From a virus (taxonomy: Duplodnaviria; Heunggongvirae; Uroviricota; Caudoviricetes): a stretch of DNA of 64,000 nt. Shown here piece after piece: positions 8,680-64,000 of this stretch; the stretch's first letter is position 1; every line of letters starts with the position of its first letter. Position numbers and translations under genes: made by a program. The stretch spans positions 1 through 64,000 of the IMG/VR virus record IMGVR_UViG_2724679293_000007; one strand, written 5' to 3'. The notes beneath the pieces are model-generated. The model saw only the letters and a list, made by a program, of their open reading frames with translations. It was not told the origin of the DNA and ran no database searches.

Positions 8680-9723
8680 GTGAAAGCCGTAATTACTCCC
8701 TTTGTACAAAAAGAGCTTGGCGTCGCCACATTCAAAGTGGATCAGGAAGTCAGAAAGCTGGTGGAGGCTGGCCGTAAATTTATTATGGAGCCGGTGCCGC
8801 GTGAGTTAATCGAGCACATGGACGACGGCCTCGTTGTTTCCGAGCAAACTATGGCAACAAATGAGGCGTTGCAGCCGTTTTTTAACAGCGATGAACTGTT
8901 TCGCCGTATTGGTGGAATTGACGCGCTGGTGGCGTGGTTGCGCAGGAAAGAGGGGCAATGCCAGGCCGCAGATCGTAGCTGGTGTGACAACCATATTGTC
9001 CACGCAGAACGAGACAATAGCGCGGTGTTGCTGTGCTGGCATCACGATAACCATTACCGGATGCGTGGTTTTAATGAGCTGAAAGAAACGCTGCATAATA
9101 ATCGCGTTAACTGGATACTGGATGTCGCCCGTCAGGAAATGGGGCTTTCAGATGGCCATGATTTAAGTATTCAGGAACTGTGCTGGTGGGCTTTCATGCG
9201 CAACATGATGCACCTGATGCCGGAAGAAGTTTACCGTATATCAATAAATAAGATGAAAGCCGCAACGCAGGATAGCGGACCTCTGAAAGAGGCGGATATT
9301 CGCCCGTATGACGATCGCGCTACAGCATATGTTCAGATGATGGAAGAACGCGCCGCGCCGATGCGTGCAAAAGTATGCCCTGTGGATGTTGACTCCGACC
9401 CTGGCATGGCGCATTTCAAAATACCAAAACTGCAATCGCTAAAATTACCTGAGTACATGGACTTTGTTGCTTCCCGTCCATGCTGTGGGTGTGGAGCGGC
9501 GGGAGCTGGCGCTCACATTACGCCTTATATCGTTCGTCATAGTCGATTATGCGCGCATGACATTTACGCAATTCCTCTGTGCCAGTCATGCCAGCGTGAT
9601 ATTGAGCGTGACCGCGATAATTGGGAGAAGACGCACGGTAGGCTGGCGATGCATCAACGATTGTTCTTTGATTACGCGCTTGGAGTCGGCGCTATCACAA
9701 GTCACTCGTCGAGCGTTAGATAA
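8680..9723 (+). CDS. pdcB: PdcB-like protein (347 aa) with Cys-rich C-terminal motif
   Basis: ORF track, GTG start; C-x2-C pairs near C-terminus; named by P1 synteny. Confidence 0.55.
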
Positions 9724-9724
9724 A

Positions 9725-9741
9725 ATTGCTCTAATGTATTG
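9725..9741 (+). promoter_or_regulatory. C1 operator (ATTGCTCTAATGTATTG)
   Basis: 13/17 match to recalled C1 operator consensus ATTGCTCTAATAAATTT; upstream of lpa. Confidence 0.6.
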
Positions 9742-9811
9742 CTATTTATTTAATCGAGAGTATTATATTCCACGTTGATTAGTTGACATGGGCTAATCAG
9801 TAGGTGACAGG

Positions 9812-10264
9812 ATGTTACTTAACTGGCAGGGACGCCACTTCATGGAAATAAATCACTCACGAATAACATCGTACGAGATTGCGGATTACATGATCCGCAC
9901 TAAATCTCTTCTATCAGCGAAAGAACTCGCAGCAATTCTTGAAAAGGAATACCCGCACCTGGATGTCGATAAGCGCGATGTTTATCTGCGCTTAAAGGCT
10001 ATCGCTGTGTCTAAGTATTCGTCTGTTTTGATTGATGACAGTACACGCCCACGTAGATTTCAGATCCACTCTCTGAATCCTGAATTCTTTCGCCGCAGCC
10101 GCGCTCCGCGCCGGTTTGATGAAAAACTCCAGAACGAACTCTATATGACGCAGGACGAAAAGGAACGCCGGGAGCACCAGCCTTGGGTAATGGCGCGTCA
10201 ACTTTTCAATAAGGTGGCCCGTCAGCACCGTCATTACGGTAATGCCACATCCGCACGTATCTGA
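9812..10264 (+). CDS. lpa: Lpa, late promoter activator (gp10)
   Basis: 150 aa ORF between pdcB and pacA under a C1 operator, as in P1; alternative start at Met 11. Confidence 0.6.
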   Translation: MLLNWQGRHFMEINHSRITSYEIADYMIRTKSLLSAKELAAILEKEYPHLDVDKRDVYLRLKAIAVSKYSSVLIDDSTRPRRFQIHSLNPEFFRRSRAPRRFDEKLQNELYMTQDEKERREHQPWVMARQLFNKVARQHRHYGNATSARI

Positions 10265-10291
10265 TTGATTGCTTGCCCGTTCCGGGCCTTT

Positions 10292-10304
10292 TGACATGTG
10301 ACTT
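10292..10304 (+). promoter_or_regulatory. late-promoter element TGACATGTGACTT upstream of pacA
   Basis: Member of the recurring AAGTNACTT-like family seen upstream of several late genes in this window. Confidence 0.35.
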
Positions 10305-10349
10305 TCGTTACCCTCGCGTCAAAAAGAGTTTTTACGAAAGGAAGCATAA

Positions 10350-11543
10350 GTGACCTGGGACGATCACAAGAAGAATTTTGCTCGCCTGGCGCGAGATGGT
10401 GGTTACACCATCGCACAGTATGCCGCCGAGTTTAATCTTAACCCTAATACCGCACGTCGTTATCTCCGTGCCTTCAAAGAAGACACCAGGACAGCGGACA
10501 GCCGCAAGCCAAATAAGCCTGTCAGGAAACCACTAAAAAGCATGATCATTGATCACGCTAATGATCAACGTGCAGGTGATCACATTGTGGCTGAAATAGC
10601 TGAAAAACAAAGAGTTAATGCTGTTGTCAGTGCCGCAGTCGAGAACGCTAAGCGCCAAAATAAGCGCATAAATGATCGTTCTGATGATCATGACGTGATC
10701 ACCCGCGCCCACCGTACCTTACGTGATCGCCTGGAACGCGACACCCTGGATGATGATGGTGAACGCTTTGAATTCGAAGCTGGCGATTACCTGATAGATA
10801 ACGTTGAAGCGCGGAAGGCCGCGCGCGCTATGTTGCGTCGGTCCGGGGCCGATGTTCTGGAAACCACTCTTCTGGAAAAGTCTCTTTCTCATCTCCTTAT
10901 GCTGGAGAACGCCAGGGATACGTGTATTCGTCTGGTGCAGGAAATGCGCGATCAGCAAAAAGACGATGATGAAGGGACTCCGCCTGAATATCGTATCGCG
11001 AGCATGCTAAACAGCTGTTCCGCGCAGATAAGCAGCCTGATCAACACCATTTACAGCATCCGGAATAACTATCGAAAAGAAAGCCGGGAGGCGGAAAAGC
11101 ACGCTTTATCTATGGGGCAAGCTGGCATTGTTAAGCTGGCATACGAACGAAAGCGTGAAAATAACTGGTCAGTGCTGGAAGCAGCTGAATTCATCGAGGC
11201 GCATGGCGGGAAAGTGCCGCCCCTGATGCTGGAGCAAATCAAAGTCGATCTGCGTGCTCCTAAGACCAATACCGATGATGAGGAAAGGCAAACAGCCGTC
11301 GGTGGCCCTTCTCTTGAAGATCTGGACAAAGTTGCGCGAGAACGGGCCGCCAACCGCCGCGCCGATGCCGCATTGTGGATTGAGCAGCGTAGGGAAGAAA
11401 TCGCCGATATCGTTGATACAGGCGGTTATGGAGATGTTGATACTGAAGGTGTATCAAAAGACCCATGGCTGGAACAAGACCTGGACGAAGACGAGGAGGA
11501 AGACGAAGAAGTTACCCGCAAGCTATACGGGGATGATGATTAA
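10350..11543 (+). CDS. pacA: PacA, terminase small subunit (pac recognition)
   Basis: 397 aa, GTG start, [28 protein letters not shown]..; contains pac site; acidic C-terminus. Confidence 0.9.
10543..10701. other. pac packaging site: two clusters of TGATCA/G hexamers (Dam sites)
   Basis: Four hexamers at 10543-10582 and three at 10673-10701 (plus one at 10734) flanking a spacer, the 4+3 architecture recalled for P1 pac. Confidence 0.8.
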
Positions 11544-30818: not shown

Positions 30819-30999
30819 TCTAGTAACTATAAGAGGTGTTAATTATTAATTGACAATCTTTAGTGTTTCGCGCACCTTGCAAGTATCCAATATTTACTGA
30901 TTGTGGATGCATAAAGAAGATCCACAGCGTTACAAATTTGTATTTCTTTCTTCAGCAATTAAGCAGGCGACTTGCTCTATCCTGCCCAAAGGAACACGT

Positions 31000-32355
31000 A
31001 TGACACACTGCAAAGAAAATACTTGGTATGAGCGTCAAGGGTACAATACAACCCGCCCGAATGAGATAAGGTCGGAGTATGAACGTGATCTTTCCCGGTT
31101 AATCCACTCTTCCGCTTTTAGGAGATTACAATCGAAGACGCAGGTGTTGGGATTGGGCGAAAGCGATTTCTACCGTACGCGGTTAACTCACTCTATGGAA
31201 GTAGCGCAAATTGGCGGCGGTATCTTGTCTCAGTTGTCTAAGCACGATACAGATGAGGGGGGTAAATTCTTACCTGACCCAAGCCTGATGCAGGCTATCT
31301 GCCTTGCTCATGATATAGGACATCCCCCCTTCGGTCATGGTGGTGAGGTCGCACTAAACTACTGCATGAGATCCTATGGCGGCTTTGAAGGTAACGGGCA
31401 GACACTGCGTATACTCTCCAAACTGGATAAGTACACCGAAACCAATGGGCTGGATCCCACCCGTAGACTTATTTTAGGCGTACTGAAATATCCAGCAAGC
31501 TATTCAGAGGTCGTCAATGAGAGGGCTTACAGCCAGTTACAGCCAAGAAGCAATGAGTGGTTGTTTAAATCATCCGAATTTAAGCCCCCGAAATGTTACC
31601 TGGACTCTGAGGAGAACACTGTTAGATTCGCACTCCAACCTTTTGATAGTGGTGATGTTAAGTTATTCAAAACGGTAAAAACTACCGCGTTGAATAAGCA
31701 CAAGAAAACAATATATAAAGCACTGGATACAACGATTATGGACTTGGCTGATGAGATATCCTACTCACTCCATGATCTTGAAGACGCAATTTCTCTGAAG
31801 ATGATCGACAAAAAAATGTGGGAGGAGCACTTCGAGGACAAGTCCCATTTATTTGCAGCTTGCCAATGCGACTCGTTTAATCTAAAAGCCGATGATGTAG
31901 CTGAAAAACTGTTCGGCGAAAGTTATCTACGCAAGGAGTGCATAGGGACACTTGTTCATCTGATGATCACTAGCGTTAAGCTTGAAGTGCAGAACTCTGA
32001 TTTCAAAAGTAAAATTTTACGCTATAAAGTGGCACTTCCTGCCGCGGTAGAAGAGTTACGTAAAGCCATTTTTGAGCTGGTTAAGAACAAAGTTATTCAG
32101 CACGAAAACGTCCAACTATTAGAGTTCAAAGGTCAGAAACTGATTGTGGAACTATTCAATGTACTGGCAAATGACCCAATACGTTTTCTCCCGACAGAAA
32201 CCCGAAAGAAATATAATCAAGAGGAAGCAAAAGGTGATGATAAAAAAATGCGCGTCATTTGCGACTATGTTTCAGGCATGACAGATGATTACGCTACTAG
32301 ACTGTATGAGAAAATATTTGTACCGAGAAAAGGCTCTATTTTTGATAGACTCTGA
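31000..32355 (+). CDS. dGTPase-family HD-domain dNTP triphosphohydrolase (Dgt-like)
   Basis: 451 aa from ATG 31000 (track ORF starts at 30901); motifs RLTHSMEVAQIG, HDIGHPPFGH, DLEDAI and C-terminal SGMTDDYA align to E. coli Dgt from memory. Confidence 0.8.
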   Translation: MTHCKENTWYERQGYNTTRPNEIRSEYERDLSRLIHSSAFRRLQSKTQVLGLGESDFYRTRLTHSMEVAQIGGGILSQLSKHDTDEGGKFLPDPSLMQAICLAHDIGHPPFGHGGEVALNYCMRSYGGFEGNGQTLRILSKLDKYTETNGLDPTRRLILGVLKYPASYSEVVNERAYSQLQPRSNEWLFKSSEFKPPKCYLDSEENTVRFALQPFDSGDVKLFKTVKTTALNKHKKTIYKALDTTIMDLADEISYSLHDLEDAISLKMIDKKMWEEHFEDKSHLFAACQCDSFNLKADDVAEKLFGESYLRKECIGTLVHLMITSVKLEVQNSDFKSKILRYKVALPAAVEELRKAIFELVKNKVIQHENVQLLEFKGQKLIVELFNVLANDPIRFLPTETRKKYNQEEAKGDDKKMRVICDYVSGMTDDYATRLYEKIFVPRKGSIFDRL

Positions 32356-61516: not shown

Positions 61517-62362
61517 ATGCTGGCTAAAGTCACTTTCCTGAGCTGTATAACGATGAGCGATTTTACTTTTTCTGGCTATGAATTGGCCTGCTTTGTAACA
61601 CACTCCGGTCTATCCCGTAGCGCCGGGCATATCCTGTCGCAATGTGCAAATCTCGCGGCAACAACCAGTGAATACTTCATTCACAAGCCTCACCGCCTGA
61701 TCGCGGCAGAAACTGGTTATAGCCAATCAACCGTCGTTCGTGCATTCCGTGAAGCTGTAAACAAAGGAATCCTGTCTGTAGAGATTGTTATCGGCGATCA
61801 CCGTGAACGTCGCGCTAACCTGTACCGGTTTACACCATCCTTTTTGGCCTTCGCACAACAAGCCAAAAATGCGCTGATTGAAAGCAAATTAAAGATCTCT
61901 TCAGCGGCAACCAAGGTTAAAGCTGTTCTCGCTAAGACATTGGCTTTATTTAATTTTTTATCCACACCCCCATGTCAAAATGATACCCCCTCCCCCTGTC
62001 AGGATGACGTGGCAATAAAGAATAAGAAGTCACAAGTTAAAAAAACAAAAAGATCAGTTTCCGGCGGTGCCGGAACGAGCAGACTCAAAAAATTGACTTC
62101 ATGGATCGCTGAGGCAAAAGCAAAGGCTGACAATCTGCGGTTATCCAAAAAACGCGCTCAAAAACATGAGTTCAAGCAGAAAGTAGAGGCGGCAGCGCGG
62201 AAATATGCTTACCTGAAGAACAAGCGTTCTCCTGATATTTGCGGGATATCAAACTTCGATAATCTGCCGCATTGCATGACGGTAAACAAAGCTCTTAATG
62301 CGGTTTTAGCCAAAAATAAAGATAACGAACAATGGGGTATACCGGCAGGATTCAGAGGGTGA
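61517..62362 (+). CDS. repL: RepL, lytic replication initiator (oriL inside gene)
   Basis: 281 aa, size and position after kilA match recalled P1 RepL. Confidence 0.75.
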   Translation: MLAKVTFLSCITMSDFTFSGYELACFVTHSGLSRSAGHILSQCANLAATTSEYFIHKPHRLIAAETGYSQSTVVRAFREAVNKGILSVEIVIGDHRERRANLYRFTPSFLAFAQQAKNALIESKLKISSAATKVKAVLAKTLALFNFLSTPPCQNDTPSPCQDDVAIKNKKSQVKKTKRSVSGGAGTSRLKKLTSWIAEAKAKADNLRLSKKRAQKHEFKQKVEAAARKYAYLKNKRSPDICGISNFDNLPHCMTVNKALNAVLAKNKDNEQWGIPAGFRG

Positions 62363-62365
62363 TAG

Positions 62366-62382
62366 ATTGCTCTAATCTGGAG
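62366..62382 (+). promoter_or_regulatory. C1 operator (ATTGCTCTAATCTGGAG)
   Basis: 11/17 match, conserved ATTGCTCTAAT half; just after repL stop. Confidence 0.5.
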
Positions 62383-62412
62383 TCACCTGGCGTTTTCAGT
62401 TTGAGGTCGGAG

Positions 62413-62658
62413 ATGCAATCTGATTTTTTACAGTTAGCGATCGCTTTTGCAGGATATGTTTGTATTGGCTTCTGTGTATACATGATCAGCCGAAAAATGC
62501 TTGTCGATATCGACCGCAAAGAACGAGCAGAGGAGATCTTAGTATGGATTTTCTTTGGCGCGGTCTGGCCATTAGGGATCATGTTTGCTGCAACATTTCT
62601 TCTGATGTGGATATTCACCCTTCCAGGTGATTTCTATAGAAAAAAAGCCAGACATTGA
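62413..62658 (+). CDS. small membrane protein (81 aa)
   Basis: Track ORF 62332-62658 overlaps repL; start moved to ATG 62413 with GAGG RBS; two hydrophobic helices. Confidence 0.45.
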   Translation: MQSDFLQLAIAFAGYVCIGFCVYMISRKMLVDIDRKERAEEILVWIFFGAVWPLGIMFAATFLLMWIFTLPGDFYRKKARH

Positions 62659-62781
62659 TACAATCGTTGCGGGTGCTTGAGGCTATCTGCTTCAGGCATG
62701 ACCCGAAAAGCAGATAGAAGAAAGCCCCAGATAACATTACGCGTCCTGCAAGACGCTTAACATTAATCTGAGGCCATATCT

Positions 62782-62988
62782 ATGCTTAGCATACGTAGAT
62801 TAGCCTCTTACCGACCAAAAGGTCAAGGAGAAGCAGGCTATGAAGCAGCAAAAAGCGATGTTAATCGCTCTGATCGTCATCTGTTTAACCGTCATTGTGA
62901 CGGCACTGGTAACGAGGAAAGACCTCTGCGAGGTACGAATCCGAACCGGCCAGACGGAGGTCACTGTCTTCACAGCCTACGAATCTGA
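62782..62988 (+). CDS. mok: mok-like overlapping reading frame (modulator of killing)
   Basis: 68-aa frame starting upstream of hok and overlapping it out of frame, the arrangement of hok/sok loci. Confidence 0.35.
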   Translation: MLSIRRLASYRPKGQGEAGYEAAKSDVNRSDRHLFNRHCDGTGNEERPLRGTNPNRPDGGHCLHSLRI

Positions 62989-62995
62989 AAGGTAA
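62840..62995 (+). CDS. hok: Hok-family type I toxin (51 aa)
   Basis: MKQQKAMLIALIVICLTVIVTALVTRKDLCEVRIRTGQTEVTVFTAYESER closely matches recalled Hok; below ORF-track size cut-off. Confidence 0.85.
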   Translation: MKQQKAMLIALIVICLTVIVTALVTRKDLCEVRIRTGQTEVTVFTAYESER

Positions 62996-63300
62996 GAGAC
63001 CTGGCGGGGAGTGATCCCCGCCACTCTTCGTGTGTCTGGTAACCTCAATGCACCCTTTTCTCCCCAATAGTGTAAAACACAATGAAGTAGAAGGAGTTAT
63101 TTCACATCATGCAAAGATTCAGACCATATCTCCCAATAGCCTTCGCGACATGATGACTTTCAGAAATATCTAGCTGTTAACAAAATTCCATACTTGCTTT
63201 GCTAATACCACCTAGATTATATATGGAAAAATACACCTAAAACTTAAACAAATTATATCCACAACAAACATCCATCTATTAGGATTAAAATTAATTTAAT

Positions 63301-63342
63301 AATAAATAATACAACACCGGTTCATTTTCTAACAAACCGGTG
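63301..63342 (-). terminator. intrinsic terminator after MazG-like gene (CACCGGTT-12nt-AACCGGTG + U-rich)
   Basis: 8-bp stem followed on minus strand by TTGTATTATTTATT. Confidence 0.55.
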
Positions 63343-63349
63343 GGCACCA

Positions 63350-63964
63350 TTATTGGAATAACTTACTGATTACATTAAAAACATTAAGGGCGTTACTTGC
63401 CACACTAGACATCTTGGCTGAATTTTTTTCGATTGAGTCAAGAACACTTTCGACTTCCGATAAAGTTCTTCTGCTATCTGCATCTTTTCCTGAGTCTATC
63501 GCATCTTTAATTGCAGATATAGCAGACTCTAAATTCTCCTTAAACTCACCTGTCGTCTCATCCTTCAAGAGAAGTTCTAACTCTTGTTTAAGTTTTTCCA
63601 ATGATGCTCTTTTCTCATCAGTTTTACTAATCTTCCCTGAATAACTGACACAAACACATTCTCTTTTATTGCAGACAGGACAACCATTTAGATAATAACT
63701 TTCAAACGCCTCGCCAAGATCATCATCTTTAAAAATAATCCCCCATAAAGAAAACAACCAAGCATATATATCAGCACACTCTTCATGAAGATTTTCTTTG
63801 TTGTAATTTTTATCTTCAATTGATTTAGCATAAGCCTCTTGCAACTCACCCAACTCTTCGAATAACCTGGATGAATGATAAAACCCACCAAAAGTAGACC
63901 AAATGGTTCTATTCGACGGATAGATATCATTAATCATTCGTGGCGCATAAGGCGGAAATTGCAT
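63350..63964 (-). CDS. MazG-like NTP pyrophosphohydrolase domain protein with CxxC..CxC motif and helical C-terminus (204 aa), AT-rich
   Basis: EELGELQEAY...(17 aa)...EECADIYAWLFSL fits the EExxE...ExxD all-alpha NTP-PPase signature; low GC. Confidence 0.55.
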   Translation of the reverse strand: MQFPPYAPRMINDIYPSNRTIWSTFGGFYHSSRLFEELGELQEAYAKSIEDKNYNKENLHEECADIYAWLFSLWGIIFKDDDLGEAFESYYLNGCPVCNKRECVCVSYSGKISKTDEKRASLEKLKQELELLLKDETTGEFKENLESAISAIKDAIDSGKDADSRRTLSEVESVLDSIEKNSAKMSSVASNALNVFNVISKLFQ

Positions 63965-64000
63965 AGGTTTAATAGCGTTATATTTATTGAAAAGCTCATC

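Follow-up and report, generated by a model that had tools for sequence, protein, structure and literature searches.

The MazG-like gene at the edge of the window

The stretch of DNA analysed here (referred to as the window) comprises positions 1 to 64,000 of the IMG/VR virus record IMGVR_UViG_2724679293_000007 (Caudoviricetes), and its host element is a P1-like phage-plasmid. At the right-hand end of the window, next to hok, a low-GC gene on the minus strand encodes a MazG-like protein, and this gene, the cassette on which it resides and the role it might play for the phage-plasmid and its bacterial host are the subject of the present analysis. The following features of the gene and the cassette lie within the window:

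63350-64000, minus strand: 3' two-thirds of the coding sequence (CDS), residues 115-330 plus the stop codon (63350-63352); frame open to 64000, full CDS in plasmid AP026755.1 (WP_000944483.1)
63638-63946, minus strand: module 2, residues 133-235, a helical MazG-like module predicted to be catalytically intact, including its Cys4 knuckle; matches to MazG-type structure profiles and to PHROG 2245, AlphaFold2 predicted local distance difference test (pLDDT) 86-97
63836-63859, minus strand: first acidic motif E162-E163-L-G-E166-L-Q-E169 (EExxE of MazG enzymes); acids invariant in 28 homologues and kept in 155-160 of ~167 distant representatives
63770-63784, minus strand: second acidic motif E187-E188-C-A-D191 (ExxD of MazG enzymes); E188 and D191 invariant in 28 homologues, each kept in 159 of 170 representatives
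63650-63682, minus strand: second Cys4 cluster C221-P-V-C224-x4-C229-x-C231; all four cysteines in 168-169 of 169 aligned representatives
63353-63622, minus strand: C-terminal domain, residues 241-330, predicted four-helix bundle (AlphaFold2 helices 241-259, 262-284, 287-307, 312-328)
63315-63342, minus strand: intrinsic terminator hairpin that begins 8 nt past the stop codon and has a U-rich tail; 12 stem pairs (consensus scan), -20.7 kcal/mol, z = -4.4
63068-64000, no strand: in-window part of a 1,539-bp low-GC cassette, delimited by alignment of empty and occupied sites with p15648-1; in window coordinates 63068 to ~64606

The minus-strand open reading frame (ORF) 63350-63964 yields the 204 amino acids of the original prediction if it is started at the ATG at 63964, and the ORF itself, its acidic motifs (EELGELQEAY and EECADIYAWLF) and its Cys cluster (CPVCNKRECVCV), followed by a long helical tail, are all present as had been described. 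The proposed length, however, does not hold, as the window translation contains no stop codon from this ATG up to base 64000 and the frame is hence open at the edge. The E. coli plasmid AP026755.1 is 100% identical to the window over 62700-64000 and NZ_CP010146.1 is 99.8% identical, and in both plasmids the annotated CDS has 993 bp and encodes 330 amino acids (RefSeq WP_000944483.1, 'MazG-like family protein'). The true start M1 lies ~342 bp past the window edge and the ATG at 63964 corresponds to the internal residue M127, so that the 204-residue gene model is wrong because the edge truncates the gene. As a methodological lesson, an ORF that touches the edge of a sequence should not be used as a gene model. 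A trivial C-terminal variant also occurs, in that the cluster representative of the protein (P0001) has 329 residues and is without the terminal Gln that is encoded both by the window (63353-63355) and by AP026755.1 (330 residues).

Domain architecture and predicted metal site

According to the full sequence, an alignment of 28 homologues and an AlphaFold2 model of the full protein (pLDDT 84, predicted template modelling score (pTM) 0.70), the 330-residue protein consists of three parts. Module 1 (about residues 1-100), which is encoded outside the window, is helical and resembles MazG in a degenerate form, and it ends in a Cys4 cluster of its own, C87-P-Y-C90-x4-C95-x-C97 (SCCPYCLGAPCSC). Modules 1 and 2 are homologous (hhalign probability 94.3%, E=9.6e-8) and their knuckles align with each other (hhalign probability 94%), but the acidic set E162, E163, E166, E169 ... 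E188, D191 is kept by module 2 alone. A linker that is disordered in the model (residues 236-240) connects this core to the C-terminal four-helix bundle, for which profile and fold searches returned generic helical-bundle matches only and which is kept in relatives of ~330-350 amino acids. The bundle contains a loop of the form S-G-x-D-x-D-x-R-R-T (residues 284-293, window ~63464-63493), in which D289 is at least 90% conserved among the 28 homologues; this loop could be a regulatory or binding site.

The spacing within module 2 (E163-x2-E166, E188 at 21 residues after E166, then E188-x2-D191) fits the signature of ExxE, ~12-28 residues and ExxD. The 28-homologue alignment shows no variation at E162, E163, E166, E188, D191 or any of the eight cysteines, and among 175 representatives reaching down to ~20% identity, the acidic residues are kept in ~93-96% of the aligned sequences (155-160 of ~167-170) and the cysteines in nearly all of them. 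To judge from these alignments, the acidic motif is no chance match. The original prediction had named the loss of the acidic residues on careful alignment, or homology to a structural phage protein, as points that would speak against its assignment; the residues are retained and the protein shows no homology to a structural phage protein. We infer that the core forms a pseudo-dimer within a single chain, in which one metal site is live and two Zn sites are structural, the Cys4 pattern of the knuckles pointing to Zn binding.

Profile and fold comparisons agree with the earlier assignment of the protein to the MazG-type, all-alpha NTP-pyrophosphatases (NTP, nucleoside triphosphate). The module 2 profile matches the solved MazG-type structures 1vmg (E=1e-4), 2p06, 5ie9, 2q73 and 2gta, and a single-sequence scan matches PHROG 2245, 'nucleoside triphosphate pyrophosphohydrolase', over 52 residues (E=3.5e-6), with further PHROG matches carrying the name 'MazG-like pyrophosphatase'. 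The fold is the all-helical bundle of the MazG type, and the functional core comprises two MazG-like units, as does the dimer of the small MazG proteins. The Pfam MazG family PF03819 (threshold 22 bits) is missed both by the window fragment (16.2 bits) and by the full protein (14.7 bits), while some relatives clear this threshold, namely P0142 at 27.1 bits as well as P0011 and P0016 by precomputed matches. The NCBIfam scan of the protein gave chance matches only, and the sole match in PADLOC-DB v2.0.0, LmuB (E=0.015), is at chance level and falls on the coiled C-terminus.

It is hence well supported that the core belongs to the all-alpha NTP-pyrophosphatases (MazG / HisE / dimeric dUTPase superfamily), and by analogy to that superfamily the protein would hydrolyse (deoxy)nucleoside triphosphates ((d)NTPs) to the corresponding monophosphates and pyrophosphate. 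The suspicion that the architecture is not that of a standard MazG protein was likewise justified, and the departure goes further than had been seen at first, as it includes tandem modules, two Cys4 knuckles and the four-helix bundle. Structure comparisons found no solved structure with the entire architecture, and literature searches by accession, for MazG with TIR or CHAT and for MazG with P1-like phage-plasmids returned no description of the family. The protein represents a known kind of enzyme in an uncharacterised variant.

Relatives, cassette and host element

A word-indexed homologue search returned 28 clusters only, whereas an exhaustive profile search yielded 992 representatives at E<=1e-3, 449 of them at E<=1e-10. 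In a census of domain fusions covering 40 longer relatives, TIR domains were found at either end of the core in at least 10 proteins, GGDEF domains in nine, CHAT proteases in six, deaminases of the dCMP/cytidine type in five, Ser/Thr kinases in two and a nucleosidase of the PNP/UDP type in one, with several other extensions carrying no domain assignment. The core usually lies N-terminal to the GGDEF domain. The acidic site is intact in the TIR, CHAT, GGDEF, deaminase and PNP fusions; the four-helix bundle is kept in the TIR and deaminase fusions and is replaced in the GGDEF, CHAT and PNP fusions.

Relatives of the gene are lone cargo in four unrelated types of temperate phages, namely P2-like, lambdoid, Vibrio inovirus and, with the gene of the window itself, P1-like. 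A P2-like phage carries a 79%-identical homologue between the tail genes S and V (L046, 8001-8990), followed by ~0.5 kb of non-coding DNA, in what appears to be a moron slot within the late structural operon. Lambdoid prophages harbour homologues of 78% and 53% identity between the replication and nin genes, and P2-like prophages of Providencia and of another enterobacterium carry one at their edge. In an 8-kb filamentous prophage of Vibrio cyclitrophicus (L043, PQ189347.1, 6649-7641), a 29%-identical homologue is the sole accessory gene and follows a zot-like gene, which is the position at which CTX-phi carries its toxin. A lytic-phage database contained no homologue, the inovirus prophage being the single match in the phage collection, and chromosomal members of the family that lie outside prophages are common and span phyla.

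Among the distant loci, one homologue lies between a type III methylase and its restriction enzyme, and others adjoin a type I restriction enzyme, a type IIG enzyme, a PD-T4-6-like kinase, an IetS-like protease or a GajB-like helicase; the cyclase and E1-E2 genes of a cyclic-oligonucleotide-based anti-phage signalling system (CBASS) are also among the neighbours. Overall, restriction-modification (R-M), CBASS or other defence genes are adjacent in at least 6 of 29 distant loci. No operon partner emerged, as an all-vs-all BLAST comparison found no neighbour conserved across 35 loci. The exception is confined to a clade of 334-residue relatives (Pectobacterium, Pantoea and another enterobacterium), where a gene for a conserved 248-residue protein comes next on the same strand (L006, 11080-11826; L049, 9077-9823; L005, 11068-11790). 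This protein has two predicted transmembrane segments and a helical middle, without a PADLOC match or a Pfam family in the contig tables, and it may be a membrane effector partner; tblastn found no trace of it in the cassette or the window.

Besides the gene and its terminator, the cassette on the P1-like element contains ~250 bp of AT-rich non-coding sequence and, outside the window, a putative upstream promoter region of ~265 bp; in AP026755.1 it occupies 9212-10750 (complement). Its GC content is 34% overall (0.30-0.37, versus 0.44-0.52 in the flanks), in line with the low GC content reported before, which for the gene alone is 0.34-0.35 compared with 0.47 for the window. In comparison with p15648-1, the insertion takes the place of 12 bp from a terminator hairpin in the intergenic stretch that separates hok from the backbone gene WP_000509939.1 (empty site, L044 4368-4379; occupied site, L002 12369-13907), and the spacer between these two genes acts as a cargo-exchange site. 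Neither terminal inverted repeats nor direct repeats of more than 6 bp occur at the cassette junctions. This speaks against a passenger borne by a transposon or insertion sequence (IS) and suggests recombinational cassette exchange.

None of 200 shuffled sequences folds as well as the terminator at 63315-63342, and another hairpin resembling a terminator lies at the end of the upstream gene, so that the MazG-like gene forms its own transcription unit. A promoter scan gave a site count not above that of shuffled sequences and no promoter was called, and the ~250-bp non-coding tail gave nothing in Rfam at E<=0.1. Few genomes carry the cassette, and its copies are nearly clonal: 19 of 5,426 complete E. 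coli genomes have it, in each case on a plasmid and at least 99.5% identical, and nine IMG/VR viral contigs carry it at 100% identity, whereas among 72,556 PLSDB plasmids 17 contain the gene and 560 the adjacent hok locus. In seven plasmids, hok and the cassette are separated by an additional ~1.7 kb (L045 1640-3340, NZ_CP091040.1) with a 378-residue ORF, which looks like a transposase of the IS4 family (IS186-like).

The P1-like element is of replicon type IncY. One flank of the locus contains icd, two KilAC-type antirepressor genes and repL, and the other one head genes, parB, parA and repA; the window further holds a Cre-type integrase ORF and a 2,255-residue ORF, which is of the size of DarB and presumably represents it. 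Three further features of the window bear on claims made for the gene:

30901-32352, plus strand: ORF of 484 residues with HD and HD_assoc domain matches, dGTP triphosphohydrolase type
62840-62995, plus strand: hok, ORF of 51 residues
62671-62845, plus strand: sok, Rfam RF01794, 113.9 bits

The dGTPase-type gene that had been mentioned as a second nucleotide-metabolising cargo gene is thus present. Defensive dGTPases are a known anti-phage class, and the P1-like element may carry two nucleotide-pool enzymes as cargo, one of the dGTPase type and one MazG-like. The hok gene does adjoin the MazG-like gene, convergently and with sok alongside, but a functional link can be discarded, given that the complete hok/sok locus (62671-62995) belongs to the backbone common to the 560 plasmids independently of the cassette, that the gene is present in 17, and that plasmids with the empty site have hok beside the backbone gene. 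Downstream of repL lies a small ORF (62332-62658, plus strand; RefSeq annotates a hypothetical protein of 81 residues at the equivalent of 62413-62658), which had no Pfam match and the hydrophobic stretches of which suggest a membrane peptide.

Possible roles and comparison with known systems

From our point of view, the protein is best read, tentatively and at slightly less than an even chance, as a prophage-borne single-gene immunity factor that acts on an NTP. In this reading, a stand-alone protein of a conflict system would be carried as a cargo gene ('moron') of the P1-like phage-plasmid and would be expressed in the lysogen from its own promoter. Module 1, without metal-binding acids, would serve as the structural partner of module 2, which would provide one complete Mg-binding site (E162, E163, E166, E169 ... 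E188, D191) for cleavage of the alpha-beta phosphoanhydride bond of a (d)NTP, and the four-helix bundle would probably mediate oligomerisation or regulation. The host and the element would thereby be protected against other phages. Two variants can be imagined, namely that (i) the core is the effector and hydrolyses a pool that the invader needs, be it canonical dNTPs or a phage-specific modified dNTP; or (ii) the core acts as a sensor which consumes its ligand and governs an output, here the four-helix bundle. MazG-like phosphoesterases have been predicted as NTP-targeting effectors that replace the effector in PUA-HAD immune systems (10.64898/2026.01.15.699771), and MazG NTP-pyrophosphohydrolase domains, sometimes located in defence islands, have been predicted to be defensive, none of them being validated (DefensePredictor, PMC13092281).

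We favour host-side immunity over counter-defence because the catalytic core is conserved, the gene has repeatedly been captured as a moron by unrelated temperate phages, the core is joined to swapped immune effector domains, and defence genes are frequent, if not universal, neighbours. Several observations weigh against an immunity factor. The protein itself has no recognisable toxic effector domain and no family match in PADLOC, NCBIfam or Pfam, and the literature searched contained no report of protection against phage by this family. Many distant loci have ordinary housekeeping or metabolic neighbours, fusions to GGDEF domains and kinases are found in general signal transduction just as typically as in immunity, and a gene of 34% GC may be silenced by H-NS in the lysogen.

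The combined weight of the explanations based on anti-defence, house-cleaning and non-immune signalling is comparable to that of the favoured one. The original prediction had suggested that the enzyme degrades a signalling nucleotide, such as an alarmone or a cyclic-nucleotide second messenger, as an anti-defence or regulatory function. In its anti-defence form, which we hold to be decidedly unlikely, the enzyme would destroy a triphosphate-bearing immune signal or a toxic nucleotide ((p)ppGpp, ITP/dITP-type nucleotides or linear pppN intermediates) and so aid establishment or replication of the element. The intact active site and the presence of the gene in temperate phages of four types agree with this, and P1-type elements are known for counter-defence cargo, of which the presumed DarB ORF in the window would be an example. 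However, MazG chemistry cleaves the alpha-beta bonds of NTPs and does not open cyclic (oligo)nucleotides, the homologues are absent from the lytic-phage database and common in non-prophage chromosomes across phyla, and the fusions to TIR, CHAT, deaminase and PNP domains as well as the positions within R-M loci fit host-side immunity and would be unusual for anti-defence proteins. With these fusions, the R-M and other defence neighbours and the prophage moron slots taken together, the direction of the biological role suggested at first is probably inverted.

A house-cleaning function is known for classical MazG, RS21-C6 and the dimeric dUTPases, and one could speculate that the protein, as a dUTPase-like enzyme, clears dUTP as well as oxidised or deaminated dNTPs from the dNTP pool and improves the replication fidelity of the element. 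Its nearest folds are indeed dimeric dUTPases and small MazG proteins, its catalytic residues are conserved and the PHROG names point in the same direction. Yet the gene is dispensable, being absent from ~97% of the P1-like plasmids with the same hok site, identity to dUTPases is as low as 7-8%, and the two Zn knuckles, the four-helix bundle, the TIR, CHAT and GGDEF fusions and the R-M and moron positions would be left unexplained, all of which makes this function strongly doubtful to us. It is also conceivable, if unlikely, that the core is a nucleotide-sensing regulatory module without an immune role, a self-resetting input domain of which the P1 version modulates host or element physiology via the four-helix bundle. 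GGDEF is among the commonest fusion partners (9/40) and kinases occur too, the core usually takes the sensor position N-terminal to GGDEF, and many loci lie among metabolic genes; the TIR, CHAT, deaminase and PNP partners and the R-M and CBASS neighbourhoods are, on the other hand, immune hallmarks, and unrelated temperate phages have repeatedly picked up close relatives as single morons, which is the usual pattern for defence or virulence cargo. Finally, the gene is AT-rich and rare and has no curated family match, as might be expected of a gene remnant in decay or of an ORF that arose by chance in AT-rich sequence. The probability of this is practically negligible, and the conservation data effectively refute it: 19 genomes carry the ORF with all 330 codons intact and at an identity of at least 99.5%, the 992 representative homologues have conserved catalytic and Cys residues, the AlphaFold2 model is confident (pLDDT 84, pTM 0.70) and a dedicated terminator follows the gene.

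There is a further and wider reading, which we regard as possible rather than probable. The tandem, Zn-knuckled and half-dead MazG core would then be a previously undescribed portable immune or signalling module that binds and hydrolyses a specific, possibly invader-derived NTP and is coupled to swappable outputs (TIR, CHAT, GGDEF, deaminase, PNP nucleosidase, kinase, two-transmembrane partner or, here, the four-helix bundle), and the P1-borne gene would be a new single-gene anti-phage system traded among temperate phages. If the protein does protect lysogens, no MazG-based immunity factor would have been validated before it, and it would add a new enzyme class to nucleotide-pool immunity beside dGTPase and dCTP deaminase. 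Its 330 residues would further offer a compact single-gene entry to ~1,000 related proteins that share the core with TIR, CHAT, GGDEF and deaminase outputs, and its substrate could show which nucleotide marks infection. The cassette is a rare, nearly clonal accessory of P1-like phage-plasmids in E. coli from livestock and humans, and as such phage-plasmids spread resistance genes, it may affect the phage resistance of the strains concerned, also towards therapeutic phages.

Among known proteins, the small MazG-type proteins (Sulfolobus SSO3215, 1vmg; AF_0060, 2p06; B. subtilis YpjD, 2gta; integron iMazG, 2q73; PF03819) are the best sequence-profile matches of module 2 and share with it the helical module and the EExxE...ExxD motifs. 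They are, however, chains of ~100 amino acids that form homo-oligomers in which all sites are alike and they have no Cys4 knuckles, whereas here two modules are fused of which one appears catalytically dead, a knuckle ends each module and a four-helix bundle follows the core. The dimeric dUTPases (5myd, C. jejuni 1w2y and the trypanosomatid enzymes) show 7-10% identity and Foldseek matches that are not significant; they have no Zn knuckles and are core replication helpers, unlike the rare cassette described here. E. coli MazG (3cra) likewise has two MazG-like domains in one polypeptide, which contribute unequally to catalysis, and gave a weak Foldseek echo, with neither sequence nor fold matching significantly. 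Its gene is chromosomal and serves housekeeping and the stress response, and the protein has neither Cys4 knuckles nor a C-terminal bundle.

On the side of immunity, the MazG candidates of DefensePredictor (PMC13092281) share the MazG domain class and were flagged as likely defensive on computational grounds, with none validated according to that paper. The pool-depleting anti-phage enzymes (dGTPase, dCTP deaminase and the PUA-Calcineurin-CE-HAD system) are non-homologous to the protein except for the MazG domain class, and no PUA or HAD partner accompanies the gene here. The logic proposed for the present protein would be the same, namely that a single enzyme carried by a mobile element removes (d)NTPs on which an invader depends.

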